Part shown: positions 1 through 64,000 of the stretch, one piece after another
How the letters are laid out: every line of letters begins with the position of its first letter
Position numbering within the stretch: position 1 is the stretch's first letter
Assembly: GCA_965178125.1 (NCBI GenBank)
Contig: OZ237769.1
Span: 434,001 to 498,000, forward strand
Reading direction: 5' to 3'
Length of the DNA: 64,000 nt
From: Bilabrum cf. latius
Lineage: Eukaryota
Position numbers and translations under genes: made by a program
The notes under the pieces: model-generated
What the model was told of the DNA's origin: nothing
Seen by the model: the letters and a program-made list of their open reading frames with translations, nothing else
Database searches by the model: none

Positions 1-69
1 GTTTTGCACGAGGTTCAGCGGCAGGTGCGTGAAATCCGTGAAAACCTCGAGCAGTTGAAGTAGGGGTGA
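1..69 (+). CDS. 3' end of an upstream gene (coiled-coil-like, ...VLHEVQRQVREIRENLEQLK[TAG=Q]G-stop)
   Basis: Frame 1 is open from the window start, with TAG at 61-63 and TGA at 67-69. Helical, protein-like composition. Confidence 0.5.
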
Positions 70-192
70 ATCTTAAACTGCAATTGCACCTTGTCCCAAA
101 GCCAAAACAAAAATGCAGTGATCAGGGAACCTTCCACGTGGGAACGTGAGGAACTCCGGTCAGCACTGCAACTGCATTTTGCAATTGAAAGC

Positions 193-3100
193 ATGGCCGG
201 AAGTCCTGGCCGCCCTGCTTCTCTGACGCCCGCACTTATCGTCCCAATATTATAGCAACTTGGGAATGAGAACAAATCAGTTCGTGATAAAGCCGGAGAA
301 AAGTTGGTGCAGGTGAGCTTTGGTTGACTTTATGTCGCACAGTGTGCGAGAACTGTCCTTGGGGCAGCCCAACTGCTGATATCTTGTATTGATTTAATTG
401 TGCCTTGCCATGCAGGGAAGAGAAATTCCAGGGTATCTCCCGTCGCTCATTCAGGTCGCCTCCAAGAAAGACATGGATGTTACCGTGCGAACGCAAGCGG
501 CTATCGCTGTCGGCGAATGCTGCAAAAAATTGTGGGCAGAGACCGACCCGAGATCTATGAAAATTGCGGCTAGCGATCTGGATACCGTTCGACGAAACAT
601 CATTCCTGCCACGCTCGGAATCAACGAGTTCTAGATTGTGCGCCTGCTCGGCAGCGGCGTCGCTGAAATATTTCTGAACGACTATCAGACGCACCCAGCA
701 GCCTCAGTCATGCCAGAACAGATCAGAGACGGAATCATGAGCCGAGACTCTACCCGCATCCGGAACAGCACGCTCGTGTGGTTCGACATGTGCAAGCATT
801 ACTCCACCAAGGGCTACGATGGCCCCGAACGACGCGCCATGCAGGACTTCAAGCGCGGCCCCATGGATCCCACCCGGTCCAAGTTTGACAAGGGCATCGA
901 GGTCGTGAACCCGGTCCTTCTAAGACTCGCGCAGTCCGCCTACAGCGCCATGTCTCCAGACAGCTGGCTCGTCCTCCGCTACTGCATCAAGGCATTCAGG
1001 CGATCCACGCAAAGCACCGTCTCGGGGCCGTACCTCACGCCGGAAGGATGCAAGGACTGGCTGCAGCTCTGCGTGCGGATCTGCAAGCTGCCCTTGCCCG
1101 AGCCGGGTGAGCCAGGCACCCCTTCGGGCCAGCCCACGGACCCTGCGGCACGGAGGCACTGGCCATTCTGGAAGGCGAAGAAATGGGCACTGCGGACGGG
1201 AGTGCACTTCATGAACCGGTTTGGAAGCGGGCCGGACATCATCCGCTACGATGTGCACAAGGTGAGAGAGAGAGAAAGAGGCAGGGTCTGGGCACTGCTG
1301 GAACAGAACTGCTTCGCTTCCTGCGGCTCACAATCGGCCCCCCCTCGTTTTCGGTCTGTGTCCCACTGCCACCCACTGCTGTCCGCTGAGATCGCATGCC
1401 CTGCGCTTTTCGTCCCTGTCCGATACCGCCACTGCAGGCATTCATGAAACCGGTGGAAAACGTCATCGGGCCTGCTTTTACAGAGAGTGCTTTGGGTCTC
1501 CTTGCAAGGCGAGGCAACGGGAAGTTCCTGCCGGAACGGCTGCAGACGTTCTGCCTCGAGGCCATTCGGCAGGGAACTGCACCGGAGAAGACCTGGAGCA
1601 TGATCAAGCCCGCCCTCCCGATGATCATGACAAAGTTCTTGCCTGTAGCGATCGGGTTCTCGGGCGATGCTGCCGACCTGTGGAAGGAAGACCCGCTCAG
1701 GTACGTCTCCGAGATTGTCAGCGAGGACGCAACCACGCAGATCGACAGGGTGTCTATCGCGGTGACCATCAAGGCGATGCTCCGGATGCGAGGGGGATAC
1801 ATCGCACCCCTCATGCTCAACTGGGTCATCGGCCAGTTCAAGCAGGTCAAGTCCATGCCTTTGGGAGGGCCGCAGGCAGTCCGATTGGTGTCCCTCCTGG
1901 GCTACGTGGACATCCTTGCCGAGTACCTCGTCAAGTACAGGAAGAAGTACGCTGCCGCCACCGAGCCAGTCCTCACGATGGGCATCATGCCGTGCATCAG
2001 GCACCCAGCCCCGTTCGTCAGGGCGCATGCCTGCAACACCTTCGCGAGCTACGCTGGTTTCCCGTGGAAGCCTCAGCCTCTTGCCACCGGTACGACTGCG
2101 GTGCTGGGCTTGCTGGACGACAAGGAACTCGCCGTGAGGCTCGCGGCGGTGATCGGGCTGAGGGCACTCACGCGGGTGAAGCGAGGGGCGGACGTGCTTA
2201 AGCCGCACGCGGTGCGGGTGGTGGGCGTGGTGATCATGGCTATGCAGAAGATGCCCGTGAACGACGACGTGGTGGACACTCTGGTTGCGCTCATCAGGCG
2301 ATTTTCCACGGAGGTGCAGCCCAAGGCGCTCGACCTCATGAAGATGCTCGTGTCATCCTCGCGACGGTTCATGGCCAGGGCTGCCTCGGGCAAGGACGAC
2401 GACAGAGAGGCCGACATCGCGGAGATGGCCCAGGAACGTGCCATCCAGGCCATGACGAAGCTGATCCGTGGCATGCCAGTGGACAGCCCTGTTGTGCCTG
2501 CATTGGAGCGAGAGATCGCGCCGATGGTGTCAATGCTCCTGCGGTACGATGGGTACGCAATGGAGTTTGCAGACGTGGCGTCGGACATCGTGATGGCCAT
2601 GGTGACTCGTCACACTGCGGAGACCATGACGCCCGCATGCTTGGCGCTGGTAGATGACCTCATCCTCGCTGTCATGAACTTCCTGCCCGACTACATTGAG
2701 ATTATTTCCAAGGTCATCAGGCCGCTTGCAGCTCGTGCGCCGTGGGCAGTGGCAGCCGCGCCCTCCACGCAGGCAGGCAAGACACGCCTGCAGTTGCTGT
2801 GGGAGTGCGTTCAGAAAGTCTGCAACGTTGGCATTGAGGACTGCGGTCAGGCCATGCGGGTCATACAGTACGTGATCGGGGTAGGCAGGGGCCACTGCGA
2901 CGATTTTGTCAGGAGCGCACTCTTGCCCAAGGCCATCAGCATGATGTCGAAAGCTGACGCGCACCCCAAGATCAAGTCAATCTTCAGCGGCGTGGCCTCT
3001 GCCTGTTTCCTCTACAACCCCACCATGGCTCTGGAATCCATGGAGAAATCCAAGTCTACTCTCCTGTGGGTGCAGTGCATGAGCAAGATGATCGACCCCG

Positions 3101-4038: not shown

Positions 4039-4682
4039 TCTGTACTGGCTCGTATCCGGGATCGGTAGCACTTGTACGGCAACCGATGGAATATCCGGTG
4101 AGGAATGGTTAGAGCAATTGTCGTTTGCAGTGTGAACTTGACACAAGGGCTTCACACTGCACTTCACTGTCAAACTAGAACTTTTATCAGCAATCCATGG
4201 ATCTGACAGATCCAATGTGACAAGATCCATTGTGGATTGTGTTGCTTGGCGATTGGAGCCGTAAATGGGGCAGGGCGATCTGGATGTGGACCAGATCTTT
4301 AATGGACAGCCCAATCTAGGAATTGATGAAGTAGGTAGCATATGTATACATTTCTATCCGTGAGAGTGGTAGCCTGCATCCGGATCCGGGCATCGAGTTG
4401 ACTAAATCTAGTTTACGAAAGCACTTGGATGACACCCGTAGTGGCAAAAAAACGCATAGCTACCATCCGAATCTGGTCCTATAGCGGTTCGTGACCGTGG
4501 GGCTGCAGCGCTGCGGTCAACTTGTTTGTGCCACCCGCTGGTAGTCCTACCACCGTATCCACCTTTCCCACCCTTCCCCCGTCCTTCCTTTGCTTGCTAC
4601 CCCTACTACATCACGCCACAGCTGTCGACTCGCCCAAACACTGCGTCCAGCGCGCGACCTTACCCACAAAGGTGCGCGCCCA

Positions 4683-8003: not shown

Positions 8004-11000
8004 TTATAGACCGAGCATGGCCCGAGACTGCGCCACGATCTGGCTCACGTTGGCCGGGCCCCTCACGGTCGAGCCCAGGTCCATGCCCAGCGCCTGCCAC
8101 TGGGCCAACGAAAACTCCTTGCCGCCGCATTTAATTGTCACGTTGGAGTTGTCCGTGTGGAATAGGTTGTCACGAGGGAGCGGCACCAGGTCGAAAGGGT
8201 CGCTGGGATCGCATGACCCGAACTCATAAATGTCGCTGCTGTGGATGAAGCACGTGTTATTGGCGTAAAGCTCGGCAAAACCGCTGTCCCCGCGTGCCTG
8301 GCCGTCGCTGTTGGCGCAGAAGGGCTTGGTGAAAAACCCTCCCACGCCACTGCCAGCTACATCCCCGCCACTGGCAGTGGACTCGCTCGATCCATCGTAC
8401 CATCCAAGCCCAAGGCGCTCCGCAGCCGCGACGGCAGACCGCATGGGCGGAGGCGGTGCGCGGACAGCGTCGGGGTACACGTAGATGTTCCCCACGGAGC
8501 GCTTGCCCCAGCCCAGGTAGTTCTTGAAGCCCCCCCACGCCATCACGTTCCCGCTCTGCACGTACAGTGAGCTCCCGTCGTCCTGATCCAGTGGCCACAC
8601 GCTGTGGTAGTTCGTGAGGAGCAGATTGCCCTTAAAATGCGACCACGAGGAGTGCGCCGTGGGTGCCTGTGGCGCCTCTCCGTTGACGGGGGGCAGCGAC
8701 ACGTTCTGGCGGTTCTGAGCCGGGGGAGCGAAGGTGACGTAGGGCGCACGTCCCCAGGAGTTGAAGGGCCCGTTGTCTGCCGTGGACCGGACCGCGTTGA
8801 ATGCGATCGAGTGCTGGAGCGTCTGGTTGCCGTACATGCCGTCGCTGCGATACGGAAGGCACAGGAACAAGCAAAGGGGGGAGGCGTGATCCGTGGGGAT
8901 GCATTATCGAGAAGACAACGGGCTGGGGCAAGGAAGGAGCAAGCAAAGCTCGCCGTCGATCGAGCGATTCACGCCATGTGCAAGCATTGACCTGCACAGT
9001 TGGGGAGTGATCTTGCAGCCCGCACCATGGGCTTGACCAGAGGCTAAGCCACTGAGTACGTCTCGTGCCATGACGGTGGAGAAAGCACCCAACGCAATCG
9101 ACAACCACACAACAAGCAACAGCAACAAGCAACAACAGCATAGTCTCACTTCCAGTTGATGGCCGCCCGCGGCGTGTTGAAGAACACGCAGCTATCGATC
9201 GTGCTACTGGCAGACAGAGCCTGGAAATAAGGCCCGGACTGCTGCTGGAACACGCCCGTCTCATGCACAAGCGCCCGCCTCACCACAGTGCCCCTGGGCT
9301 AGGTGCCCCCAGTCGCATCTGCCAGCTCCGTGTCCCCCAGCAGCACGATCCCAGAGGCCCCGGACCACTGCACCTCGACATCCTCGATCACTGCACCCCG
9401 GGCATACCCGGAGACCATCACGGCGTTGCCACCCACGCTGCGGAAGTATGCCCCGGACAGCGTGAATCCCTCCACTCCCTCCGCATGCAGCGCCGCACCG
9501 CGGTGCACGGCCCAGTCCCCCCCAGACGGCACCATGTGGGGATCCATCGACGTGGACTCTGCGTGTGCGAACTCGATGCCCGCGATGGTCACGTCCTGCA
9601 CGGGCGAGTGCTTGGATCCACCGATGGAGAGGAGGGTCTTGAGGCCCCCTGCCACGTAGCCAGGCGTGTCGGCGGGAGATGCCGTCGTGTTCTCGTACAC
9701 GTACAGCTCCTTGTTCCCTGAGTCGTAGTACCACTCCCCGGGGGAATCCAGCTCGGCGAGCACCCCGGAAATGTACCACTCGGCGCCGTGGCTGCACCCC
9801 CTGGCCTCCTGAAAGCCGCCCTCCGCGAACTTGATCGTGTCGGTGGACTCGTCCACGGAGGCCACGCTGAAGATCCAGCCGCCCCAGTGGCCGCAGTGGT
9901 ACGTGTGCAGCCACGCGTCGCTTGCGTCGCTGCCGCTCCACTTCTTGTCTGTCCAGGTGGCATCGTCCCACACCATTCCCGTGGTGATCTCGTACGTCGA
10001 GCCGCCTCCCCCGCTCGGATGAGCCAGAGCCCACCGGCTCCGAGGCGGGTCAAAGAAGCGGCCGGCGCCGCCCACGCCGATGCCGTACTGGGGAAAATGG
10101 GTACCGTTCAGCTGGGGGGTGGCCAAAGTGACCTCCGTGGCAGCGGGCACTTTGGCAGGTGGCAGCCAGCCCTTGGCCGCCGAGACGTACCCGGTGCCAG
10201 GCACAGTCCAGAGGCCGTTCGTCTCGGGGTTACCGGAGGGGTACCTGGCGTGCTGCAGCCTGCGGCCTTGCTCTGCGAGCGTGCTGGTGCTCCCCGCAGG
10301 CACTGAAGATGAAGATGAAGAGGAAGAGGACGGCGGCTCTGCCCTCCAGAGCTGCCTTGGGGTGCTGTCGCCGAGGTCAACGGACGCCTTGAACACGTTG
10401 AATCTCTGGCCCGAGACGTGCCCGCTTTGCTGCTGGGCGAGCCACTGCCCGTCGGTTCGGAAGTAGCATTTGTTCGCGAATGCGCCCTGGTTCTGGTCGT
10501 GCCACGTGTAGGAGGTGCAGGTCGAGTTGCCTTCGCACACGGCTGCGCAATCGGCAGCGGTGCTCGTCTGCCCGCCGTACACGATTCCACTCGATTCGAT
10601 AGTCCCATTTGCGTAAATTTCATCGAAGACCCCGTTGATTCCCGTCAGCTGGGCGCCCATCCCTTGCTGGACGGGAGACCATTGCAGACCTTTCACGGGC
10701 CTGCCGCCGCTCACAATGACGCGCTCGCCAGGGGCGGCCGCAATCGTGAGTCTCGAATCGTCCTGGCCTAACTCAATGGTGTTTTCCAAAAAGTACTCCC
10801 CCCCATGAACAATGATGGCCCTGAAGCTGCTGCTGCTTCCCACTGCGGCAGCCCTGCTGACTCCAACCGCACGCGCAATCGACTTGCACGGGGCTGCTTC
10901 AGTGCAGTTTACGCTGCCATCATTGCCGTGGGTGCCATCCACGAAGTAAATAGCTGCATTGTTGGCCTTCGCCTCGCTTATGGCTGCTGTGGAGGCGTCG

Positions 11001-11284
11001 CTTGCCGTCTTTGCTCGAGAGGCGGCAGTGTCATCTGTAGGTTCTGGTAATTGGCACAACGAAGAGAGCTCAAGCGCATCCCACACATCGCGAAGATTAC
11101 CGCGGCTAGGAAGGCGATCTCTTGCGTACGAGTAGGTCAAATTTCGCATCGCGCAGTCGATCTCGCGCTCAATCCCAACCCCCGGTGCGTCGAGCGGTCG
11201 GGCGGGCTGGATCATGCCCTGCATGCCGGATGCAGCAAACGCTACCGGCACACAAGCAATCAAAAAAATGTAGACCTATTTCAT
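8004..11284 (-). CDS. Secreted right-handed beta-helix (pectin-lyase fold) protein with PAN/Apple module; exons 11284-9150, 8844-8004
   Basis: Signal peptide MK[TAG]VYIFLIACVPVAFAAS. Motifs GGEYFL, ELDSPGEWYYD, VPSGGDWAVHRGAA, GGT[TAG]PRG, NDG...DNGPFNSW. PAN-like CAAVCEGNSTCTSYTW...CY. GTGAGA..CGCAG intron. Ends TAA. Confidence 0.8.
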
Positions 11285-11444
11285 GCAAATGCTGGTGCAA
11301 CTGGAGTGGGGTATGCTGTAGGGGGCTTCTTTCGCCCATTCGGATGACGGTTCGCTGTGATTCGTTGGCCATCCACTCCCCAAACCCGCACACCAAAGCT
11401 GCATCTCGCAACCATTTGGACATTTTGATCGATAGGGCGCAGTA

Positions 11445-14199
11445 ATGTCAAGTGGCTCAGAACCAGCTCCCGTCAGCGTAGATGGAGGGACCATGTTCAC
11501 GCTGTTCGAGGCATTGTTCGGATCCAATCCTAATTTGGAAGATGCTAGGCGGTGAGGCTTTTGCAGGTATCGCAAGCTGGTCCAGATGAGACCACACTTT
11601 ATCATGTATTTGATCAAGCAGTACCGACTCTCGCAGCTGGTTTGATCAGGGCTTCTAGTTCAGCGACATTGAGGGCCGACGGTTCGTAATCCGATAGGCA
11701 CGCGGCGGGCCCTGTGGGATCATCGCGCCACTGCAGGCCATCTTGATAAAATATTTATTATTTGGCACAGCACGAACGCACAAAGAGGCCATCAAAGGAA
11801 TCGGGGCTCCCGTCGATGACGATGCACCAAGCCAGGCTGGCAGTTCGGCAGCGGGCTCGGCTGCCGCTGGCGGTGCGGCAGCCGCAGAGAGCCAAGGTAC
11901 TGGAGGCTCTTTGTCAGCGTCCTCTTCATCCATCACGACGGCGAAACCAACCGGGACGTCCGAAGCACCTCCTTCAGATCTGCTCCAGAAGCGGGCGAAA
12001 GACATCGGCATGGTGTCTGACTCGAAACGACACGCTGCCCTCATCGATGCGATCGCATTTGTTCTCTGGCAGGCCGCCCTGAGAGGAGGAGACCCGCTGG
12101 ATGAAGGCCTGGCGGGCAACGGGAAAGGAGGCAGCGCGCGGGCTCAGGTGGTGGCAATCCGCACCAGCCCGCCGGTGCCTCCGCCCCTCACGGCAGACGG
12201 CTTTTCCTCTTACGGTGGACTCATCCGCTTGGAATGCGGGTCCATGGCGGAGACGAGAGCTGCCGTGGATCGGCTTTGGAACAGGGATGTGCTCCAAGGC
12301 AGCAGCGGGGTCATCCTCCTGGTTCTCTCCCTGCTGCTGTCGAGGGGCGTGGATGGCCTCCAGGACGAAGACAGGACTGACAAGGGGGAGCCGCTCGTGC
12401 AGAGGTTCGGAAACTGCGGGCAGGAGCTTGTGAACCTGATGGTCACGGGGCGGGGCACATCGGAGGTGTTTGACGGGGAGAAAGACGTGGGGGGGGGCTT
12501 CATGATGAAGGGGATCATGAGCCAGCCGTACGTGGGATACCTCACCAGGCTAGAGTTTTTACGAGCCACAAAAGTGGGGTCTTACCTGAAGGAACCGAGG
12601 TTTCCAGCCTGGGTGGTGGGTAGCGAGTCGCACTTTAGCGTGCTGTTTTCGACCGACCCGAAGGCCTGCGCACCTGACCCGCAGTCGGCGGCCAAGCGCG
12701 TCTTTGACAAGCACGACGCATCCAGCGGCGGTTTCATCGCGCTGGAGGTGCTTCCTCAGGTGCTAGAGGAGCTCGAGCTCCCGATCGTCTCTTAGCCCGA
12801 GCAGATGAAGCTGCTCACGAAGTCCCTGGACCAGGGCATGGGCGTTGTTCCCTGGTCCACGTTCTGGAGCGTACTGTGCAAGTGGCTCCAGGAGGGAAGC
12901 GAGTCGGATGCAAAGCCAGTGGTGGTGGACGAGGCGGAGATAGAAGGCAAGGCCAGGGAGGCGTTCAACGAGGCGGACGCGATCGGGGGCGGGTTCATTC
13001 AGCCGGAGCAGGTGCCTGCTGTGCTGCGAGGGATGGGTGCCGGGGCCTACGCTGAGCTCCCGCCTACGGCTGCCGATAATCAGAGGGAGGAGCAGAGGAA
13101 GAGCAGGGAGGATCTGGAGCGCAAGGTGCGCGCCAAAGCGATGGATGGCATCATCTTCTTCGAGGCGCTGTGGGAGGTGGCCGGTCCCGTGGTGGTCGGT
13201 GACAAGGTCAAGGCAGCCGAGGCTGCAGAGGAGGCGAGAGCAAAGGCGGCCAGGGAAGCCCAGCGGCTAGAGAAGGAGAAGAAGGAGGAGGAGGCGGCCA
13301 TCCAGGCGAGTCTCGCCGAAGATGCCTGGGGGAAAGGGTCACAGACGCCCGCGGCAACTGTCGGAACCAGTGCGGCATCTTCGGCACCGGCGCCATCACC
13401 GTCACCCCATCAGGGCGCGTCTGCCTCCAGCAGCAGCTCCGGTGCCGGCGGGGATCTTGCTATTGACCCAGATTTGGTGCAGCGGCTGCAAGCAGCCATT
13501 ACTGGCGGTGCAATCCCTGGTGTGTCTGACATTGCACAGAAAGCCGAGGCCCAGGTGAAGAAGCAGCAGCTGGAAGCCGCCAAGGCCGGCAGCCTGCAGG
13601 TGGTGGTAGACGGGAAAGTGCTAGGCAGCAGTGGCGTGCCCGTAGAGAGCGGTGCGGGCTAGGCTGGATCGGGCAGGGAGGCAGACGGCCAGCCAGCCGA
13701 GAAGAAACGAAGGTAGGACGGTAGCCCCAGTGCAGCCGATGCGCCGGCACCGGCGCCAGCACCCGTTCCAGCACCGGCACCAGCACAAGTGCCCATGGAC
13801 GAAGATGCTCAGCTGGCCGCCGCACTGGCAGCCTCCATGGAGGCGCAGAGCGGCGCGGGCGGGGGCGAGGTGCCCCCGATGATGCGGGCGTCTAGCACGG
13901 ACAGCGTGCAGCGAGACATTGAGAGGGCACTGGGCAAGGCAAAGGTGGTCCGATCTGTGCCCCTGTGGCACGTGAATGGGCTAGAGACCGCAGACAGGAA
14001 GGCACAAGTGTATCCGCTGCTGGTGCAAGAGACAGACACGGGGGCATTTGCTCCAGAGGCTATGGAGGCGTCTGGGGCTGGCCACAGCCACGACAAGAGG
14101 AGGCTTCAGCAGAGGCAGAGTTTCGGGCAGGTTATCCGGACGAAGTGGGTGGGGGCGCAGATCAAGTTCCTTGAGGAGGGTGCGCCCAACATTGATTGA
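11445..14199 (+). CDS. MINDY3: MINDY-3/4 (FAM188, DUF4205) deubiquitinase with EF-hands and UIMs; exons 11445-11551, 11637-14199
   Basis: WFDQGF, [TAG]ARGGPCGIIAPLQA catalytic Cys motif, QELVNLMVTGRG, VGSYLKEP, WVVGSESHFSVLF catalytic His, LWHVNGL, IRTKW. TAG at 11656, 11695, 12793, 13660 and 13714. Ends TGA. Confidence 0.88.
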
Positions 14200-14385: not shown

Positions 14386-17300
14386 TCACACCACCATGTC
14401 CTCCACGTACTGCATGAACCGGTTGGCATACTCGCCCGGAGGCACGCAGCTGATCCCGTAACGGTTCCACTTGGTCACGGAGAAGAGGGCAGTCTCTGCG
14501 TGCTTCCTCATGTTGTACGCCTGCAGGATATCGATCACGCCCATGAAGTAGATCTCCTTGCCCAGCTCTCTCGTCGCGGGGTCGTAGCTCGGGATGGGGA
14601 AGTTGCTGCGGGGAGGCGCGTTGGCATCCGCTGGCGTGAACTCGGGCCTCTCGGGGAGATCAGAGCTGCCCGATGCCAAGCTCACGTTCGAGTCCGACAT
14701 CGTTTCATCCACCGAAGCGGAAGGATACATCCCACCGGCAGCAGCATCAGCAGCACCGCCGCCGCTAGTGGGGCGAGTCGCGCTGCCAGAAGAGGCCAGG
14801 GACCGCCTCCCAGACCCAGACAGCCTAGACTTGCGGGACTGGCCGTGCACGTGAGCGCGCGGGGTGGCAGAGTGCCTGCGACCCACAAGCCTGCTGCTGG
14901 CCTTCCGGGCAAAATTGCCGTTCCCGCGACCCAGCCCAGGCGCGGGCCTAGGGTCGCCCGCGCGGCCCGCCCTCCCGCCAGCGGCAGAGGCAGAGGCGGC
15001 CGCGCCCCAACTCGCTCCGTGCTCAGGTTCCACGACCTCGTCAAGCCCGCTCCCGCTCGGCACATGGCTGCCCCCAGACCTGTCCAAACCCGCACCGCCA
15101 CCGCTGCTCTTGTCCACAGGCCTGTATTCCTTATCCGGGTCCTAAATGCCCAGCAGTATGGAGTAGTCCATGATTCCCATTCTGGCCAGGAAATCCACGT
15201 CAACCCTGAGCTGCTGTAGGAGCTTGTTGCGCCGGTTGGCCCCAAGCCTCACTTTGACGCCCATTTCCAGCAGGTCGTTGTCCTTGTACACCACCCTGTC
15301 CCCGTACTTTTTCTTCTCTTTCTCCGTCGCGGCACGGCCCACGCTGGACCCCTTCAAATCGAACGTCTTGGTCATCACCGTGTCCCCGGAATCCGTGACA
15401 GAGTGCATGACCAGGAAGTACACAGACTTCTTCAGGTGAGGCATGTCCACCCGATGCATGCCGTAGAAGCGGCAGAGGAACGTCTCGGGGTTCTTCTGCG
15501 CGTGCACGTAGTAGTGCGGGAGGATGCGCCGCAGGAACTTGCTCTCCTCCTTGGTCATCGTCTTGATCATGAATCTCCCGTCGTGAGAAAAGAAGAAGAA
15601 TGACCCGCTCTTAGCGTTGCTGTTGAACTCGATGTAGTCGTACATGCCGCCCACGCAGGCAGCGTACTGCTGGTTGGCGATTCCGAAGCGCCTCCTGAGA
15701 TGGTGGAACACCTTGGGGGCGTAAGACTGCATGGAGGGGGGGGGGGGGAGGGGGGGGGGAAGACGAGAAGAGACGGGATGGGTTGGGTTTGGGGGCAGGT
15801 GGGAAGAAGCAATGTGCCATGGCAAGCAGCTGGCAACGTGGCAATGTAGCAGGCCGCACAGGCTTTCGAGCGCAGAACAACATCGCAACGAGCACTCCAG
15901 AGGTACACTCCTAGGCCATGTCAAACGGCCAGACTCACTCGGAATGAAAAAGGGTGCTTGATATCCAGCGGGGGCAGGTTCATGCTGGGATCTCCGTCCA
16001 CCTTGAAGAGCCGGACTTCTTTATCCTTGAAATCGTCCATGGAGGGACGAGGCTTGGTGGGCACAAACTGGGCAGTGGTCCATATGCCCAGCATCATGCC
16101 GTAGCTGAGTTGGTATTGCTTGTGCGTCGCCTTGATGCGCTTGCCGTGCACGGTGATGTCACCGGACGCACCAGAGTCCCGCAGCACCTCTTCGGGCACC
16201 TCTGCTGCTGCGTCCCTGGACGATGTGGGCTTGTCACGGAGGGCATGGTACAGCTCGCTGTTGGGCGCCACCGTGGGACGACGGGAACGGATGGGCTGGT
16301 AGCGCATGCTCTTGGCTGACTTGAGCCGGCCGGAGGGGGACTAAAATATGACGTCTTGGTCACCACCACCCCTAAGCTCTGGTGTCATGACCATTCCCGA
16401 GTCCGGGTCGATGGGCAAGGGGGAAGGGCCGGCCATGGGGCTGTCTTCATCGAGCCCACCTTCCCACACGGGAGTGGCAACCGCGCTGCTGCTGCCGCGC
16501 ATCATCCCAGCTCCGGATGATGCCCCTGCAGCGCCACCTCCTGCACCTATGCGCCCCCGAACCCCCAGGCCATGCTCCCGCACGTACCCAGCACCATCAC
16601 CATCGCCCCACCCTCGCCCACCCGCTCCTATTGCACCAGGACCTGATCTGCCCACCGGCCGTGCCTGGCTGCCCCCCCTTCCTCCACCAGAGACTTTATG
16701 AGCCACAGGCCCGTGGTGGCCGCCGTTCCCACCGGGCGTGCGGTGGCCTTGGCGCCCCTGCCCACTGGGTGTCCCCTGCCCCTGTCCCTGCCCCTGTCCC
16801 TGCCCCTGCCCCCTGGAGATCGGCGTGCCGCTGCCCGCACCGCGGGCTCCGGATCCACTCGTCCCATCGCGACCGCTGCGCCGCCCCGCCATGCGCATGC
16901 CCTTCTTGGCGGCCATGATGGGGCTCTGCGTGTACGAGGCGCCTGCTCGCGCGCCACCACTGCCCACCAGCCCGCCGCCCCAGCCGGTACCGGCTCCTGC
17001 CCCTGCCCTCGGGGCCGCGGATCGGGACCTGCCGTTGCTCGGTGCCATAGAGGGCGATGTCATCCCCCCACCGCGCTAGACCGGTCCCCCGCCCCTCCTG
17101 CCTGCCATGCGCATGCGCCCGCCGCTGGCAGGGGGGCGATCCGTGGCACCCTTTTGGGCACCCTTGCCAGAGGCACCGTTCGAGGCGACCACTGGTGAGT
17201 TTCCCCGAGTGCTCGGCGCCGAAGACACGTACCTGCTGGATGGCGCAGATGCTCGAATGCCAAGAGGAGAGCGCATGCTGATTCCTTCAGAAGGTGTGCC

Positions 17301-18068: not shown

Positions 18069-21000
18069 ATGGAGGTCACCAGCAGCAGTTCTGCCCAGCT
18101 TGGTACCGTCCCATAGAGCTAGTCGGTTGACTCTGGAGCGTTGCAGCTGGCAATAGGGTAGGGTGCTATCGAGCGCGCTAGGACCGGAAAGAAAGTTGCT
18201 GCCGATGACGTGCTGAACAGCATTGCCGCGCAGTACTATTCAGCTCCGGCACAACAGGATGTGTAGTCGAGTTCGGTTGATCCCAGGAGTGGGACAGGGG
18301 CGGTTTCTGCTCTGCAGGCTGGGCCAGAGTAGTCTAGAGACCCCAGATCGAGCGATCGCGTGCCGCTCAGCGAGGCGCGGCACGCTCAGGGCACTTCAAC
18401 AGCGGCATCGACGGAAAAAGGCGCGCCAAGAGTTGGCCTAACTGTAAACATTGCTTCAAGTAGGGTGGGTGCTATAGGGGGTGTGCGAATGAATTCGTAC
18501 TTGCCGAGGGCACCGCGCCCTCCGCAAGCGCGCGGTCGCGAGAGCTCCGGCGACTACGCGCTTGGGCGCGAGAGGTGGTCCTCCAACTCTTCGCGGCACG
18601 TGGATTAGGCACCTGGCACGCGACCATAGCGCTGGGAGGAGCGTAGCAAGGCAACGCCTTCGTCCAATTCCCTGGCGTACCTCAGCACGGTTGGTCGGGT
18701 GTGCCCCCCGTTTCCAGGCACCACGAGCTTGCCAGGGTACCGCGATCTCATCGGGGATGTACTCTACGGTGTAAAAGGACCCCCCAAGTACATGCTTCGT
18801 CGGGTGCTCCTTCACAACGAGGAAACACACAAGCAGCACGTCGGCAGGGCATGCCTAATGTACTTCGAGTCACGGAGTGACGACCCCTCCCAACGACTAG
18901 CAGAGGCCTTCGGGTTCGCTGATCTAGAAGGCTTGGTCGCCATGACCCTCGGGCAAAAATCCGGGATCCCCGTGCAGCACAGAGACCCTGCAGGAGCCCG
19001 GAAAGATCTGCGCTCTACAGCGGCTGCAGGAGTTTGGTTCGCTGTCGCCAAGGGCCTGAAGACCTACGCGAGCGCTCGGCATTCGGCTGGGCTTGGATAC
19101 GTTGGAATTCTTCGCCAAGCACAGACAAACTTTCATCATCGAGAGGACCGGCGCATGGAGGAAAAAAGGGTATCCGGTATTTCCAAGGCCAGCGGTGTAA
19201 TCCCCGTGGTTCGCCGAGACTTCCGGAAGGCAACGCGGTCGCCAAGCCCCCCACCGCCTGCGCCGCTCCCTGGCTATGAAAGTCGTGTCTCCCAAGCTGG
19301 GCAACAGAAGCAGCTTGAGGGTGCAGGCAGTGCGCAACAGTCGAACGCCTCGGAGGGGATGACCGATGAAAAATTCAGACTAGGGAAGCAAACTGTTCCC
19401 TCAGTGTCGTCGGCTGCCGACTCAAGCCAGGCTGTGGCAGTTCCAGCAGGGAAATCGGTAGTCTCGAAACAGGGTAAAGTTTACCCCCAAGCTGCAACCC
19501 AGCCAAAGGGGGTGGTTTAGGCCAAACCCAAGGGAGGCTTGCCTGGAGCATCTTCCAAGTCCACGGGCCGACCTAGTGCCACGCAGGTACAACCAAAGCC
19601 AAGCTAGCTGTTGAGACCGGCATCGCTGGACACTGCCTTGTCGAGAACGTCTGGCTCGGCCCAGCTACGTCCAAAAGGTGTTCCCGTAGCAACATTGCCA
19701 CGTGCAGGCACCCGCCCGTATTCCACGCCGGCGCTGCAAAAGCCTTTGCAGAAACTCAAGAACGCCAAACGAAACGAGTCACTGAGTGTCGTGGACGCAT
19801 ATTTGCCTCCTGGTGCACAGAGCGAGTCAGAAAGTAGTAGTGCAAACAAGCCAAAGTAGAGCCTACGAGGCAGCGTCGAGACTGATGTTGGAGAAGTGCT
19901 GCAGCACTTCAATCAAAGCGAGGCATTTTTGGTGGCTATTTCAACCCGTGCCAAAAGCCTAAGCCATCTGCCTCTTCTTGAAGACGAAGTTGAGGCCGTG
20001 TAGCGGCTGTTGATGTCTGCTGGAGTCGCAGTACAGAAACCGCCAGGAGAGGGAGCCACGGGAAAAGCAAGACCAGCTATTCCGGTTTCGCATGAAGCTG
20101 CGAACTCTCCAGGCTCCATGTCTGACACCAGTGGTGCCGGTTCAGATTCTTCGGATGATGAAATCATCGATGTTTCCGACGACAGTAACTCGGACTCATC
20201 AGACGACGAAGGAGGAGCCACGGTCCAAGATCAGCCCCTTGCACAGGTACTCAAGAAGAGCAAGTCTAGCCTCCGAGCTGCGCAAGATGTGAGATCCCCC
20301 GTGGTAATTCACCGGAAGCGTAAGCGAGAGGAAATCACCTCTGCATTTGCCTCTGGCGGCTCCGAGCCAGCTATGCATCCCGCTGCGTCGACCTCAGTGC
20401 TAGGTCCATCGCTGGTACCACCTTCGTCACACACGGCGAGTTCGGCCAATGCTGGTGGCTCTACAGCCCACCAGGCCTGGTTCCCTTCGTCAGCCTCCCC
20501 ATACGCGGGCTATCGCGAGTACTCGGCCGCTGATCGCGTTCGGATGGAGCAGGAACGCGTTGCTGTTGGGCGCTCTGCGTATCTAAAAGCGAAGCGAGCC
20601 GCAGCTGCCGAGCAAGAGACTAGCACCCCGCCAATCCCATTCATACCACGCGGGGCTTTCTTCTGGGCTTCTTCGTGCCCCTATGCAAGGCTTGGACTGC
20701 CGCAAGGCACTCCTTTCCCAAAAGTTAAGCTGCAGGCAAGGCATTTGCAAAAGGTATCTCACTAGGACAAGTGGAAGCTCCGTGGATCGGGCAGCGCAGA
20801 GAGGGTCCTCCTCGGCGGCACGCCTCCGGTCCTGGTCACACTAGCCCAGGCTGGCTCCGTGTTCCGAGGAGCAGTGTCGGCGCTCCGGGCCATACAGGCC
20901 CAGGAGAGCACTTCGGAAGGGGCCCCTTTCAAGACCAGCAGGGTCAACGAGCAAGGGGCAGCAGCGGGGATGACATCCCATTCAGCCTCCTAGCACCGGG

Positions 21001-21317
21001 CAGGCCACAGTGCTGCCCGTGTTCCCGAAGAGCGACCAAATGGCTCACGCAAATCTAGCATGACGTCGGCAGAATCTGTGGCAAGTGTACCACACGCCAA
21101 GCGCAGGCGCGTTGACGCGATTTCCCAAGGCTCGTCCACTTCGGACATGTCGAGCCAGCGGCAGGGGTCATCATCAAGCCAGCCCGCATCTCAGAACAGT
21201 CGCCCGCTCATACGACGAAAGGGATCCGCTCGTCCGGCCGGCAGCTCACTAAAGGTGCCGAAGAAAGCTAGTAGAGTCGTCGACATCTCCAGCGATGAAG
21301 ATTCGTCGGACTACTGA
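18069..21317 (+). CDS. Hypothetical low-complexity S/A/P-rich protein (about 1080 aa)
   Basis: One frame is open for 3.2 kb with about 13 TAG and no TAA or TGA. It joins ORFs 18360, 18699, 19611, 20010 and 21060. Ends TGA. No recognised domain; start uncertain. Confidence 0.65.
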
Positions 21318-40812: not shown

Positions 40813-43578
40813 TCAGTGGTAATCTTGGTGCAATACCACCACTCGATCTGCGCCGGAGGTGAAGAGCCACGGCTGCTGCGGGTGGAAGGCGCACCCCAGC
40901 ACACCCAGCCCCTCCTTGTCCTTCTGGTGCGACCGCAGGATCTTCACGGGCACCAGCACGGGAGGCTTGGCCCCGCCCTCCGTGACCCGGGCATGGTACA
41001 CGTGCGTGGACCCGTCATCGCTGCAGGTGGCCAGCAAGGGGTAGTGGCCGTGGAAGGAGCAGTCCCTCACGGCCTTCGTGTGGTACCGCAGGGTCTTGAA
41101 GGGGTCCCTCGAGGGAACAACGAGGTCCAGCCAGACCACCTTGCGGTCATACGCGGTCAGCAGGAGATGATCCCCAGTGGGATGCACCTCCATCGAGGCG
41201 ATCCACTTGCAGCCCGTGTGCATCCTCGCCAGCTGCTTCTCGTTCATCATGTCGTACACTCGTACCGCTCTCTGGTTGGCCACGAAGATCCGAGGTTTCC
41301 TGGGATGGAAGGCCACGCACTGCACGAGCCCCTGGTTCTTCTTCATGGGGTTGAGGCTCTTCCTCCGGCTCAGCTGGTGCACGAGGACCATGGCTGCGGT
41401 GGCGGGGGCCGAGGGCGCCACAGTGGCAAGGTAGTCACCGTTCCTGTGCCACACCACCCTCTGCTGCTTGTAGTGCATGACCACTTCCACCTTGATCCCA
41501 GCCGCGCTGTGGCTCACCTCCTCGGCGAAGTCCAGCTCACTCTGGAGGCCCCTCCACCTCCAACGGGCGAACTTGCGGCGAGCGGCAGGCACGTCCTTCC
41601 CCTCCTGCCCCTCGTCGTATTCCTCCCCTTCGCTGTCGGGTGCATCCCCCTCTGGCTGCAGCACCGTGTCAAACCCATCAGGGCCAGCGCCAGCCGCACC
41701 AGTACCAAAGGCCGGGTCGCCCGCGCGGCCGGTCGTCTTGCCCGCAGTTGCCGCCGCACTGTCCTCCTCCCCTTCCTCCTCTTCCCTGCCCGGCAGCCGA
41801 GGCAGCGCTCCCGTACCCGCCGCACCCTGCCCCAGCGCCGCCAACGCGCTCACCGGGCCAAGCAGGTCCCCGCCATCGCCAGCTCCACCGGCAGCGGCGG
41901 CAGCAGCAGCCCCAGCCCCCTGCCCCCTCTTATCCTGCCCCGCCCTCTCGGCCTCTGAGACCACCTCGAAGGGAACCACCTTGGAACGGAGACCCTCTTC
42001 CGCCCGCAGGCCAGCAAGCGCGCGGAAGGTGATGGGCAGCTGGGAGGGACCCGCCGTGCCGGGATACAGCAGGAACATGCGGGTGCCAGCCACAGCCGCG
42101 ATGATGTGCACGTCTGCTTTGGGGCACCACGACACGTCGCTGACGATGGGCTCGTCACACAGGGTCCAGCGCCTCATCTCCCTGCCCGTCTCCACCTCCC
42201 ACACGCGCACCGTGCCGTCGTCGCTGCAGGTGGCCAGCCACTCCCCCGAGGGACTCACGCTCATGCCCCTCACCCTGCCCTCGTGCCCGCTGTACTCGAT
42301 CGACCTGCCAGTGGGGAAGGGCCTCAGCTCCTTGGGGTCCGGCAGCTGCGGCAATAACGATTCCGGATTCTCGGGCAGCTGCCGCTGGTGCACCAGTCGC
42401 GGGGCCAGGTAGAGGTCGAGGCACCGCTCGAACCGCTCCTTGGCCAGCGACTCGTAGGCGGGCACGTGCCTCAGGGCCGCAAACTTGGCGGGCTCCACGT
42501 CAACGGGGCGCTCCTTGGGCTCCATGCTCTCCCATGCCTCCTTCTCCTCTGCCGTGAAGAGATATTCCTCCGGGGGGTTGTAGGAGAGGGCGTGTCCCGG
42601 GGGGGCGGGCTTGGGCGGGGCGATGGGGGGGGGCCGCTTGCTGCCTCCCACGGCCGTGTCCATGTCCTGGTCGATGGCCGTGCCGTCGTCACCCCATAGG
42701 GCGTACACTTGTTCCCTGACGTCGTCCTCCGCGTCGTTGCTCTTGCTAGACCGGAACTTGCCGGCCTTGATCAGCTGCGCCATGCGGTTGATGCGGCGGG
42801 TCATCCACTTGGACGGGAGGAACCTTCGCTTGGGTTCGGGGGCGCTGTCTAGGGGGTGGATCTCCTTGTCCTTGGAAAAAATGCCCGTCAGGTCTTCGTC
42901 GTGTTGGGCGGACGTGTGCCCGTACTTGCCGCGCACGATGTTCCGCAGCACCTCCACGTCGCCCTTGGAGAGCGTGATCTCCTCGTCGTTGTCGCTGTCG
43001 TAGATGGTCCACTTGAACAAGGGGTTGTCCTGGGACTCCAAGAAACGCTCCACACCGTCGGGCCGGTTCCGTCGCGCGATGCGGCGCCCGGCAACGTCGT
43101 ACCCCACGTGCCCCATGCCCTCGTACCATTCCTTGGGGACGTTTCCGCGAGTGTTCTTCGGAGCCTCGTCGTCCGATGACAGGTCATCGGCGTGCGCTTT
43201 CATCAAAGAGGCCGCTGCCGATATTTCGGCCGACCCGCCGCCAGTGGCAACCGCGGCATCTGCTCGCGAGGAGCTGCTCCGCTTGCTTCGAGGGGCGCTA
43301 GAAGACGAGGCGGAGAGAGATGCGGAGGCCAAGGAGCTCCTCGAAGCACTTGTCCTTGATACGGGTGTGTTATCATCGGAGGACCTGCTATCATCTTCAT
43401 CGCTGCTCCACTCTCCCTCGTCATCGGAGGATGTCAAAATCTCGCTCTCGTCGTCTGAGCTCCCATCATCCATGCCGGCGCCAGTTTCCAGGCCATGTCT
43501 CGGTATAGTATCATCATTATCGTCTTGCGATGCTCTTCGGCGTCTAGAGTTGGATTTGTTTCCTCTTCCTGACCGCAT
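40813..43578 (-). CDS. BOP1: Ribosome biogenesis protein BOP1/ERB1
   Basis: NTRGNVPKEWY...HVGYD, PEPKRRFLPSKW, PPGHALSYNPPEEYL, ERFERCLDLYLAPR, LPDPKELRPFP, WD40 repeats, FHPQQPWLFTSGAD. No TAG. Ends TGA. Confidence 0.96.
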   Translation of the reverse strand: MRSGRGNKSNSRRRRASQDDNDDTIPRHGLETGAGMDDGSSDDESEILTSSDDEGEWSSDEDDSRSSDDNTPVSRTSASRSSLASASLSASSSSAPRSKRSSSSRADAAVATGGGSAEISAAASLMKAHADDLSSDDEAPKNTRGNVPKEWYEGMGHVGYDVAGRRIARRNRPDGVERFLESQDNPLFKWTIYDSDNDEEITLSKGDVEVLRNIVRGKYGHTSAQHDEDLTGIFSKDKEIHPLDSAPEPKRRFLPSKWMTRRINRMAQLIKAGKFRSSKSNDAEDDVREQVYALWGDDGTAIDQDMDTAVGGSKRPPPIAPPKPAPPGHALSYNPPEEYLFTAEEKEAWESMEPKERPVDVEPAKFAALRHVPAYESLAKERFERCLDLYLAPRLVHQRQLPENPESLLPQLPDPKELRPFPTGRSIEYSGHEGRVRGMSVSPSGEWLATCSDDGTVRVWEVETGREMRRWTLCDEPIVSDVSWCPKADVHIIAAVAGTRMFLLYPGTAGPSQLPITFRALAGLRAEEGLRSKVVPFEVVSEAERAGQDKRGQGAGAAAAAAAGGAGDGGDLLGPVSALAALGQGAAGTGALPRLPGREEEEGEEDSAAATAGKTTGRAGDPAFGTGAAGAGPDGFDTVLQPEGDAPDSEGEEYDEGQEGKDVPAARRKFARWRWRGLQSELDFAEEVSHSAAGIKVEVVMHYKQQRVVWHRNGDYLATVAPSAPATAAMVLVHQLSRRKSLNPMKKNQGLVQCVAFHPRKPRIFVANQRAVRVYDMMNEKQLARMHTGCKWIASMEVHPTGDHLLLTAYDRKVVWLDLVVPSRDPFKTLRYHTKAVRDCSFHGHYPLLATCSDDGSTHVYHARVTEGGAKPPVLVPVKILRSHQKDKEGLGVLGCAFHPQQPWLFTSGADRVVVLHQDYH

Positions 43579-43862: not shown

Positions 43863-44612
43863 ATGGCGTCCGCAGACCAGATCAAGAAGCCTAAGATGGA
43901 CCGAAAGGAGTTTGAGCGCATTGCGCGCCATATTGCTGCCCAGATGGGTGATGAGAAGTTGGTTGACGACATCAACATGGATGGCCAGTACGCTCTGTAT
44001 GTCGCATCGTCCAACGGACTGATGCCCCGCCCCCTTGCCAACGACAAGCGATTCCCCAACACTAATTAGGCTGCTAACTGCTGGTAAGTCGCGGTGTACC
44101 TGCAATAGATACCGATGCTAGCCTACCTTCTGCTTTCCAGTCTGGCGATGCGGAGTGCTTCCGTTTCGCCGTTTTGGAGCGTATGCGTGGCCTGACTGTG
44201 ACCTTTTCGAAGCCATAAATACTATATTTGCTTCTGTTTGCATGGTCCATCTCTGGTGGCGCGAAGACTGAGCTGGCTCCCGACTTCAAGCGTTCGATCC
44301 GTTCTTGATGGTCTACTGTTGCCCTGCACCTGCATCGCTTCTACTCCCTCGCGCAGGACCGCCGTGAACGAGTACCAGTATTGCGTGAAGGTAACTGGCT
44401 CCCACTTCGATTCCAAGTGCGTGCAGCGAAAGGCGGATTTCATGGAGCTGTGCCCCGCCGAGTGGCTCGAGAACTGGCAGGACCAGATCGAGGACGGTAC
44501 CTTCATGGGAATTGGGGACACCCTTGGGCCCGGTGAGCTGGACGAGGAGGAGGAGGAGGAGGAAGCTGGCAGCGATGGGGAGGAGAGCGACAGCGAGGGG
44601 GATGACGAGTGA
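43863..44612 (+). CDS. COX6B: Cytochrome c oxidase subunit 6B; exons 43863-44083, 44357-44612
   Basis: DKRFPNTN[TAG]AANCW|TAVNEYQYC...C...LCPAEWLENWQDQIEDGTF matches the COX6B pattern RFPNxNQxxxCW...LCPxxWxxxWxxQxxxGTF. Ends TGA. Confidence 0.9.
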
Positions 44613-62174: not shown

Positions 62175-62487
62175 GGGGCCAGCACACGATCGGAGGAACG
62201 GAGGGTTCCGTAGCAGGGTATTATGGCAGCGATTGATATACATGTGGAATGAATAATTGTAAACGATGCGAAGATTCTTCTATGGAGCCGAACACCCAGA
62301 CGAGGAAGAATCAAACTCCTGCTCGCCAAAGCGCCGCCGCCCTCTCCACACCGCACTCGTTCCCCCCAACCCTGCGCGAGAGTCCCTAGCTTGCACGCAT
62401 ATGACTCAACACTATGCCTGCTCGCCCCAGCATGCCAGGACCAGCCGCTAGACGACACCCCGCCGCCACACCTATCCTAGCAGCAGC

Positions 62488-63417
62488 TCAGTACAGGCTC
62501 TTCTTGGCCTGCTCTGCGCGCATCTTCTCCTCACGGATGCGCAGCTTCTCCTGGGTCTTGAGGCCCATGATGCCGCCACCGAACTTGCGGCGCGAGTCGG
62601 TGTTGTTGTTGAACTTGGCCATGGCCATCTCCTTCACCTCCTCCAGTGCAGCAACGTCTCCCTCGTCCACCCTAGTGAAGCAAGCAACGGTGGTGGTCTT
62701 CTGCTTGCCGCAGAACTCACCAAGGCGCGACTTGTTGTTGAAGATCACGTACGGGACGTCCATCTTGCGGCACAAGGCGGGCAGCCAGATCACGAGCTCG
62801 ATGGGCTCCACATCGGCGGCGATCACAACCAGCTGAGCCTTCTTCTGCTCGATCAGGGTGGTCACATGCTTCAATCCGTACTTGATGAAGTTCTTGTACT
62901 CCATCGTGCCGTTGCCGGTGCCGGCAGCCTTGGCGTCCGCGGCCTCCTTCATGCGGGCAGCCTTCTCGGCGCGGGTCTCTGCCTGGTACTTGGTCAGCAG
63001 CTTGACCAGACCGCGAGCCTCGGCCTTGTCAAGGGCCATACGGAACTGGTTCACAGACGGGGGAGTGCGCAGGCGCTGCTTGAGTACCTTCCGCTGGCGC
63101 TGCACCCTGATGTACCTAGGCCAGCGCACGAAGCGGCCGAGGTCGCGCTCGGGCTGCACATCGCCACCGATCCGGAAGTTCTTCGGGCGAGAAGGGAACA
63201 GGGCACTGCCTGCCTTCTTGCTCTTGCCGGTGCGCGCACGGGAGGACTGCAACGTGAAACCAATCAGGTGAAAAAGCATCGAACATTGAAGTGCAAGAGC
63301 GAACCGGGACGATATCACTGAATCCAATGATACTACAGGCACACAAGAGCAATGGGAGATTTTATGCATTATCTAGATATACCAAAAAGGGTAACATGCG
63401 CCGTTGAGGCTCACCAT
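62488..63417 (-). CDS. RPL7A: 60S ribosomal protein L7a (eL8); ATG micro-exon 63415-63417 and exon 63246-62488
   Basis: RPKNFRIGGDVQPERDLGRFVRWPRYIRVQRQ, KYGLKHVTTLIEQKKAQLVVIAADVEPIELVIWLPALCRKMDVPY. ATG|GTGAGC..TTGCAG intron. No TAG. Ends TGA. Confidence 0.97.
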
Positions 63418-63558
63418 AGCTCCGAAACAACCTTTTGTTAGCTGGTGGTGCTTCCATTGGCAACGATCGGATCATAACTCCGAATCATCACTGTACAATG
63501 ACCCTATTTGCAATTCTGGGCATTGGACAATCTTCCAGTTGACACTGAATACAGGACC

Positions 63559-64000
63559 ATGGAAAGTACTTAGATGATTGCTGCGAGATAGGCTGGCGTA
63601 AAGGTTCAAGATTTACCCAAGGAAAAAGATGCTAAGGATGGTTTGTCGGTGAGTTGCACTATGGTCCAAGTTCCCCTGCGTTCTGAGTCGCTTGCAGCCT
63701 GTTGGCCGCAGTACGCGAGCTAATTTGTTACAAACACTCATAAATATCGTGCAGGGATGGGTGGATTGGGCTGTAGAATCGTATGACTATGTATACAAAC
63801 AGTCGCAACCGGTGAGGCTATTTCTTCGATTCTGGCCAAAGCAATTGCCTGAGTTTTCCATTGAAGTATGCGTAGAGTGCCTTTTGAAATACCATGTACT
63901 GTGCTCGCAGTGGCTTGGATACGGATAGAAGGCAGCCGGCTTTGCGATTGCGGCTGTGTTGCTGGTCGGCGTTCCGGTCATGCTTGAGAGTTCCCGAGAA
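63559..64000 (+). CDS. Tom22/Tom9-like mitochondrial import receptor, 3' truncated; probable exons 63559-63648, 63698-63812, 63911->64000
   Basis: G[TAG]KAAGFAIAAVLLVGVPVMLESSRE resembles the plant-type Tom22 TM segment KAAWI...LILVVPLIIEMDRE. TAG at codons 5 and 11. Canonical splice sites. Confidence 0.5.

Follow-up and report, generated by a model that had tools for sequence, protein, structure and literature searches.

In-frame UAG codons, very probably read as glutamine beside UAA and UGA stops, in a GC-rich and stramenopile-like eukaryote

Nuclear genetic codes in which both UAA and UAG stand for glutamine (NCBI table 6) occur in ulvophytes, hexamitins, oxymonads, Amoeboaphelidium and many ciliates. 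Only a small number of departures from the standard nuclear code are known altogether, and those in which the meanings of UAG and UAA are split are fewer still, two papers listing them for a fornicate, a rhizarian, a green alga and some ciliates (PMC5304391, PMC11687900). The changes restricted to UAG which are named there concern Iotanema spirale (glutamine), the rhizarian exLh (leucine) and Scotinosphaera (serine) (PMC5304391, PMC11687900), as well as Protocruzia tuzeti and several phyllopharyngean ciliates, where the codon was turned into glutamine or leucine (PMC11687900); in one ciliate UAA is lysine and UAG is glutamate (PMC5304391, PMC11687900). The present analysis deals with the TAG codons that interrupt the genes of a 64-kb stretch of contig OZ237769.1 (positions 434,001 to 498,000), referred to as the window. 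The window is nuclear DNA of an intron-bearing eukaryote rich in guanine and cytosine (GC); its GC content is about 60% and it contains one gap of 200 N at 59020-59219. It is virtually certain that UAG is a sense codon in this organism, and, as judged from the alignments and gene ends described below, it has very probably been reassigned completely to glutamine while UAA and UGA still act as terminators, which corresponds to the pattern of NCBI table 15. The code is therefore rated as a known type (table 15-like) in a new lineage. The list of UAG-only reassignments given in a first-pass annotation of the window was not complete; Scotinosphaera, Protocruzia tuzeti and several phyllopharyngean ciliates have to be added to it (PMC11687900).

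The code proposed here is like that of the fornicate Iotanema spirale, for which the original report describes the transfer of UAG alone to glutamine with UAA and UGA kept as stops (Panek et al. 2017, PMC5304391). Iotanema is, however, a metamonad, while the organism of the window is stramenopile-like, GC-rich and COX6B-bearing. The same type of code, UAG alone being changed to glutamine and UAA remaining a stop, is described by McGowan et al. 2024 (PMC11687900) for Protocruzia tuzeti and phyllopharyngean ciliates, and it has arisen repeatedly and independently. Unlike in those ciliates, the eRF1 and BOP1 proteins of the window group with Cafeteria and other stramenopiles, the GC content is 60%, and the introns are conventional spliceosomal ones of 85-305 nucleotides. 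The rhizarian exLh shares with the window a UAG whose meaning differs from that of UAA; in exLh this meaning is leucine, which was rejected in the window. Finally, as in the table 6 codes, a stop codon would have passed to glutamine by way of a near-cognate tRNA-Gln, but in the window TAA terminates.

Genes were identified by a Pfam scan of translations in which TAG had been masked as X. The families recognised were importin-beta, PAN/beta-helix, MINDY-3/4, PIP5K, eRF1, cyclic-nucleotide-gated channel, BOP1, Leo1, NOL10, zf-CCHC (zinc knuckle), RRM, COX6B, CEP19, ribosomal protein L7Ae and pectate-lyase-like beta-helix, so that two of the proteins (PAN/beta-helix and pectate-lyase-like) are beta-helix proteins. 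When open reading frames (ORFs) of at least 800 amino acids were counted from stop to stop in the six frames, the standard code yielded 1. The number rose to 15 when TAG alone was taken as a sense codon; the corresponding numbers for TAA and TGA were 1 and 6. For codon counts, 24 coding segments from about 20 genes were clipped by hand with the use of spliced joints, Pfam matches and first ATGs, some of the 5' ends being unverified. These segments comprise 16,886 codons with 97 TAG, no TAA and no TGA in frame, and two additional in-frame TAG lie outside them, one in exon 2 of eRF1 and one in the exon of COX6B. The out-of-frame counts for these segments, one for each of the two other frames, are 111 and 111 for TAG, 292 and 316 for TGA, and 32 and 62 for TAA. 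In-frame TAG is thus about as frequent as TAG in the other frames, which means that selection does not act against it there, whereas in-frame TAA and TGA are excluded. TAG is absent only from BOP1 and L7Ae, and if the codon means glutamine it accounts for 97 of 764 glutamine codons (approx. 13%). These figures bear out the first-pass annotation, which had claimed about 100 in-frame TAG, the interruption of housekeeping genes (eRF1, COX6B and NOL10 are among those affected) and the lack of internal TAA and TGA, although the latter zeros follow partly from the definition of the ORFs.

The genes and codons that carry the argument are the following.

21550..23423, plus strand: eRF1 gene, with exons 21550-21647, 21857-21902, 21995-22383 and 22640-23423.
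Same gene, plus strand: spliced eRF1 ORF of 436 amino acids with two in-frame TAG and the TAA stop 23421-23423, established from contig joints with GT..AG borders and Pfam eRF1_1/2/3.
21900..21902, plus strand: TAG at eRF1 residue 48; Q in 89 of 95 homologues, L in 0 of 95.
22067..22069, plus strand: TAG at eRF1 residue 73, which is human Leu69 in the NIKS register; L in 89 of 95, Q in 6 of 95.
22923..22925, plus strand: CAG (Gln) codon of the window eRF1 which is TAG in the metagenome contig L001, from a codon-by-codon comparison.
11637..14199, plus strand: MINDY-3/4 deubiquitinase gene, the exon after intron 11552-11636; five in-frame TAG, TGA stop.
11695..11697, plus strand: TAG at MINDY residue 20, six residues before the catalytic Cys (..IRxARGGPCG..); Q in 108 of 110, L in 0 of 110.
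12793..12795, plus strand: TAG at MINDY residue 386 (numbered from 11638), in a variable column.
44067..44069, plus strand: TAG in COX6B exon 1 (RFPNTNxAANCW); exon 2 matches Pfam COX6B (2.3e-07).
15142..15144, minus strand: TAG in the PIP5K kinase domain (..LLGIxDPD..).
8004..11275, minus strand: PAN/beta-helix gene A with intron 8845-9149, TAA stop 8004-8006 and one TAG in the clipped model (9299-9301).

Contigs from four sequencing runs (X3, X6, X7 and X9) were aligned to positions 4601-24000 of the window. Those of X3 were unspliced and identical to the window over the same region; this run has the behaviour expected of DNA, and the assembly may have been made from it. In contrast, the X6, X7 and X9 contigs skip seven GT..AG intervals (7534-7707, 8845-9149, 11552-11636, 15727-15938, 21648-21856, 21903-21994 and 22384-22639), all of which read GTRAG...GCAG, and therefore these contigs are derived from spliced RNA. 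Six TAG codons are spanned by spliced contigs, namely residues 48 and 73 of eRF1, 11656 and 11695 in MINDY, and 9299 and 11276 in beta-helix A. When the eRF1 exons were spliced at the contig joints, the translation was open except for its two TAG. The TAG of residue 73 is present without any difference in a spliced contig of X7 (record 21), and exon 2, the last codon of which is the TAG of residue 48, is joined on both sides in X7 and X9 with no difference among those listed. The MINDY gene (Pfam PF13898, E-value 4.9e-53; PDB MINDY-3, E-value 3.5e-48) has the joint 11550>11636 in a spliced contig, and its TAG at 11656 and 11695 both show 0 differences in spliced contigs, that at 11695 in one of X6 (record 12). 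In beta-helix A the joint 8844>9150 was seen in both X6 and X9; a second in-frame TAG of this gene (11276-11278) lies immediately 5' of the clipped model, and the spliced record 11 of X6, which covers 7887-8844 and 9150-11304, includes both TAG with 0 differences. The PIP5K TAG is covered by a spliced contig of X9 (record 25) that differs from the window in 10 letters, none of them at the TAG codon among the differences listed. A further contig of X6 (record 14), covering 17917-21400 and with it a gene with 13 TAG, has 0 differences and no joint.

TAG is thus unchanged in the spliced contigs of eRF1, MINDY and beta-helix A, which is the comparison with spliced mRNA that the first-pass annotation had suggested. 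Among the 40 strain differences listed, out of 104, none falls on a TAG codon, and they are therefore uninformative on TAG synonyms. Within the coding segments 24 of 39 of these listed differences are synonymous, a proportion pointing to purifying selection on these reading frames.

In order to assign the amino acid, the TAG positions were compared with homologous proteins. The eRF1 query was aligned to 95 full-length homologues (at least 400 amino acids) among 120 matches. The near-invariant glutamine which is replaced by TAG at residue 48 is also found in the metagenome, in 69 of the 73 loci that cover the position among 80 eRF1 loci. In case of MINDY, the first homologue search gave 3 proteins only, low-complexity words having swamped the candidates; the alignment used contains 152 proteins, i.e. 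the 150 listed by an exhaustive search (P0264 included) together with P0265 and P0266, and a row of these local alignments was counted only if at least six of the seven flanking columns were aligned. The almost exclusive glutamine at residue 20 is shared by human MINDY-3 in the PDB alignment, and we take this residue before the catalytic Cys to be the oxyanion-hole glutamine of the MINDY enzymes. COX6B exon 1 had no match in the PDB at an E-value of 1 or below; for a 25-residue query at 10 or below all 13 matches were COX6B1 chains, and in 5 of the 5 alignments shown the x of the TAG codon (NQ motif) was paired with the Q of RFPNQNQTRNCW. When this exon was scanned against Pfam ten times, with X or one of nine residues in place of the TAG, 0 families were returned, the exon being too short.

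The sequences closest to the window point in the same direction. At eRF1 residue 73 the three nearest relatives (P0147, P0149 and P0150) have Q, while in the metagenome loci L was counted 57 times, Q 17 times and other residues twice. At MINDY residue 386 the closest relative that spans the site, P0267 (64% identity), also has Q. The metagenome contig L001 carries an eRF1 last exon with 92% (protein) and 82% (DNA) identity to that of the window; the 236 codons compared contain 99 synonymous and 18 non-synonymous differences, including one CAG>TAG. This contig is 1.3 kb long and is without the N-terminal exons, and the two TAG sites of the window eRF1 are outside the comparison. The MINDY fragment P0264 is 91% identical to the window protein and its ORF stops precisely at the window TAG of residue 386, which means that its organism also has a standard-code stop at this place. 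The CAG/TAG exchange in L001 and the end of P0264 at the window TAG thus indicate that the code is common to at least one other species-level lineage. The claim of the first-pass annotation that TAG is a sense codon therefore stands, since spliced transcripts retain the codon and since in relatives it is either conserved or has CAG as its counterpart. Weaker evidence came from the surroundings of the TAG codons: of all residues Q shows the strongest enrichment within 3 positions of a TAG (34 observed against 22.9 expected), and the neighbour-composition profile correlates best with that of Q (0.515), closely followed by R (0.506) and A (0.478).

The ends of the genes were examined as well. Of 18 ORF ends 14 are TGA and four are TAA, the latter in beta-helix A, eRF1, the channel and zf-CCHC, exactly the genes for which TAA had been noted before; the TGA that closes channel exon a is more like a splice donor than the end of a gene. 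The COX6B and L7Ae genes also end in TGA. The TAA of eRF1 stands at the homologous C-terminus, the alignment reaching query residue 438 (of 436 plus stop) in relatives, and L001 has TGA where the window has TAA. With none of either codon in frame and both at the ORF ends, the earlier view that UAA and UGA remain stops agrees with the present counts.

Several points nevertheless weigh against the reading of UAG as glutamine with UAA and UGA as the stops. The consensus of eRF1 residue 73 is L and not Q. The TAG at MINDY residue 7 falls in a variable column (V 22, E 14, R 13, S 10 and Q 9 of 107), that of residue 386 contains D in 27 and Q in 7 of 98 rows, the PIP5K site is H and not Q in PIP4K2B, and the TAG sites of NOL10 are not in conserved columns. 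About 10 of the approx. 99 TAG can be aligned with homologues, the others being located in low-complexity or lineage-specific sequence, and some of the 5'-proximal ones may fall in untranslated regions or unrecognised introns. The absence of internal TAA and TGA is in part a matter of construction, as the ORFs were delimited by those stops, and the evidence for TAA as a stop consists of four genes in 64 kb. TAG is required at no gene end in the window, though the models read through TAG by construction. The types of the sequencing runs are guesses of a tool, which marked X6 as 'probably DNA', and the RNA nature of the contigs was judged from the spliced joints alone. Neither tRNA genes (ARAGORN) nor Rfam families were detected in the 64-kb window, and the decoding tRNA is a prediction.

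The adverse columns could mean that UAG is sense but denotes another amino acid, such as leucine (as in the rhizarian exLh), serine (as in Scotinosphaera), glutamate (as in the ciliate PL0344) or something else; this would suit the L of eRF1 residue 73, the H of PIP5K, the D most frequent at MINDY residue 386 and the V most frequent at residue 7. However, L is never found at the two conserved sites, eRF1 residue 48 and MINDY residue 20, and the log-odds summed over the five counted columns were +11.7 bits for Q as opposed to -8.4 for L, -9.5 for E, -9.6 for D and -12.8 for S. Glutamine, which had been a guess of the first-pass annotation, is thus ahead of any other residue by approx. 20 bits, leucine being the next best. 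The Pfam score of PIP5K, when different residues were placed at the TAG, was 271.9 for H, 269.7 for Q, 269.1 for E, K and N, 268.6 for S, 268.4 for X, 268.2 for Y, 267.6 for L and 267.4 for W, so that Q is second of the nine residues tried and L is under the X baseline. Furthermore, Q is found in the nearest relatives at residue 73 of eRF1 and at residue 386 of MINDY, and CAG is exchanged for TAG between the window and L001. Another amino acid is accordingly very unlikely. Leucine and serine were rejected as candidates on the bit scores given above and, in case of leucine, on its counts of 0/95 and 0/110 at the conserved sites.

Stop codons that are at the same time sense codons are known from Blastocrithidia (UAA) and Condylostoma (all stops), and an ambiguous or context-dependent code of this kind, in which UAG would be glutamine inside the genes and still terminate some of them, was also considered. 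If a gene without homologues ended in TAG, our models would extend it to the following TGA or TAA. On the other hand, all the 18 ORF ends as well as those of COX6B and L7Ae are TGA or TAA, the end of eRF1 is supported by alignment up to the last residues, and TAG is nearly as frequent in frame (97) as out of frame (111), with up to 13 TAG in one gene, which would need efficient read-through. We regard such a code as improbable, to about the same degree as a different amino acid. The reassignment of both UAA and UAG (table 6), with TAA merely made rare by the high GC content, is less probable again. These two codons usually change together (PMC5304391), and of the three stop triplets TAA is the rarest in the window (461 occurrences on the two strands, TAG having 929). 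However, the ratio of CAA to CAG (144:523) predicts some 27 in-frame TAA beside the 97 TAG if TAA were glutamine, and 0 were observed; TAA stands at the homologous C-terminus of eRF1, where L001 has TGA. Moreover, when TAA was read as sense in addition to TAG the longest ORFs gained approx. 30 codons at most, and the in-frame sequence past the four TAA ends is short (13-49 codons, as compared to 0-86 codons after all the ORF ends). That the TAG codons are not translated at all, being lesions of pseudogenes, parts of unrecognised introns, sequencing errors or sites of RNA editing, is scarcely credible: some of them lie near ORF starts or in low-complexity regions without direct support, and introns, some with TAG (6 in eRF1 intron 1), do exist, but the spliced contigs keep TAG with no joints around it, in a 91%-identical relative the corresponding site is likewise TAG or a stop, most of the strain differences are synonymous, genes such as eRF1, COX6B and NOL10 are affected, and the TAA and TGA also expected from decay are absent in frame. 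Introns, RNA editing, pseudogenes and assembly error were rejected as sources of TAG on account of the spliced contigs that retain it and the synonymous strain differences.

For the glutamine reading of UAG a mechanism of two parts can be proposed. A tRNA-Gln with the anticodon CUA is predicted to decode UAG and not UAA; a single change in the anticodon of tRNA-Gln(CUG) would probably have given rise to it. The release factor eRF1, with changes on the surfaces that read stop codons, would have lost efficient termination at UAG. The eRF1 of the window is divergent, with a terminal branch of 0.48 compared to a median of 0.05. At near-invariant sites of the N domain it has residues that are found in 0 of the 95 homologues, V at human S60, V at I35 and H at K130, and at the position of human N129 it has S, shared with 4 of the 95. 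The motifs TASNIKS, GTSMI and YLCDNKF are replaced by TAVNIKS, GTSMV and YMCDSHF, respectively. As in Iotanema, the tRNA-Gln(CUA) is a prediction, and eRF1 has unusual residues in the codon-reading N domain, which may bear on its reading of stops; in Iotanema the change is T32G in the GTS loop (PMC5304391), whereas in the window GTS is intact and the changes are at human S60, I35, N129/K130 and L69.

The release-factor gene itself uses UAG at the position of human Leu69 (22067-22069), a residue reportedly involved in the reading of the G of UAG (PMC5304391). According to the same source, the L69A substitution in eRF1 raises read-through, especially of UAG, and the rhizarian with UAG as leucine has Ala there. 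The L69A of exLh thus affects the very position that is encoded by UAG in the window, where the residue is most likely Gln. A link between glutamine at this position and the code change is suggestive as far as the aligned residues go. Since other eRF1 proteins have it as well (6 of 95 homologues, 17 of 77 metagenome loci), it would be insufficient alone to explain the code.

Another, transcript-like eRF1 contig of the metagenome (L003, positions 1-1310), with 65% GC and approx. 62% identity to the window eRF1, contains two in-frame TAG and ends in TGA. One of its TAG columns is K in 80 of the 95 homologues and the other is variable, and its NIKS region is strongly altered (TASQIKSHANRNAVQ). 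From these features L003 may represent another organism that reads UAG as sense.

The organism was placed with eRF1 and one further gene, which has no TAG.

40813..43578, minus strand: BOP1/Erb1 gene, TGA stop; Pfam BOP1NT, E-value 1.2e-82.

The best named match of both BOP1 (47% identity) and the last exon of eRF1 (69%) is Cafeteria roenbergensis. In a quick maximum-likelihood tree of eRF1 with 96 rows the query was in a clade of 5 with Cafeteria roenbergensis and three others (support of 94 in the SH-like approximate likelihood ratio test, SH-aLRT), within a wider clade with Bicosoecida sp. CB-2014 (88-92) that adjoins the oomycetes. In the BOP1 tree, built from 67 rows (the query and 66 of 120 matches, the named ones and the top ones), it formed a clade of 4 sequences that includes Cafeteria (83), itself nested in a clade of 26 rows to which Phaeothamnion and Tribonema belong (99). 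A protein-cluster search with BOP1 returned broad eukaryotic clusters only, with no informative taxon. From these two quick single-gene trees, in one of which the eRF1 branch of the query is long, the organism is likely to be a stramenopile, probably near the bicosoecids. Since COX6B is present, it is aerobic. The independent origin that the first-pass annotation had proposed is supported, as the organism groups in the two trees with stramenopiles and not with fornicates, rhizarians, ciliates or green algae.

In a full-text literature search, the coverage of which excludes many subscription journals and supplements, no nuclear code change was found for a stramenopile or a bicosoecid. The chance that the code of this lineage is unreported is nearly, though not quite, even. 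Somewhat more tentatively, it could be the first nuclear code change of a stramenopile: an independent and recent transfer of UAG to glutamine in bicosoecid-like flagellates with at least two species-level members, present in the runs of several differently labelled organisms, and with an eRF1 that has UAG at Leu69. If this is true, a GC-rich, aerobic and probably culturable flagellate and its standard-code relatives (Cafeteria) would make a tractable pair, one that would bear on how eRF1 loses UAG yet keeps UAA and on the takeover of the codon by tRNA-Gln(CUA). Annotation of this genome with the standard code would split nearly every gene, and such fragments (P0145, P0264) are already in protein collections.

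The stretch 14001-23900 of the window is found in at least 13 runs from seven studies, under at least four differently coded organism names, and small shares of it are present in runs labelled algae metagenome and protist metagenome. Many of the X3 contigs are only 90-99% alike. It is possible that this organism, in several strains, often accompanies or contaminates other cultures.

The remaining features of the window are these.

18069..21317, plus strand: gene of no recognised family; 13 in-frame TAG, TGA stop.
23980..32162, plus strand: cyclic-nucleotide-gated channel gene; 12 TAG, TAA stop; Pfam Ion_trans and cNMP_binding.
62488..63200, minus strand: ribosomal protein L7Ae-family gene; conserved part without TAG, TGA stop; Pfam PF01248, E-value 5e-24.

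On the minus strand, a globular-looking protein of about 1,000 residues (4683-7703) has 7 in-frame TAG and the spliced intron 7534-7707, and gave no Pfam match. Also on the minus strand, an ORF of 1,353 residues (36409-40470) is made up for the most part of approx. 80 tandem copies of a unit of 9-10 residues (GATGPGSVM and variants) between unique flanks which carry 10 in-frame TAG; no Pfam family was found for it. The channel is represented by two ORFs, 23980-26664 and 26766-32162, and the end of the first one (...CAGG|TGAGGT) resembles a splice donor. From this layout the two are probably one gene across a short intron at about 26662-26765. The L7Ae-family gene (62488-63471, minus strand) is antisense to a spurious ORF of 352 residues (62263-63321, plus strand) that was ranked higher in the ORF lists, and the absence of TAG from its conserved part is in line with the avoidance of rare codons in highly expressed genes.

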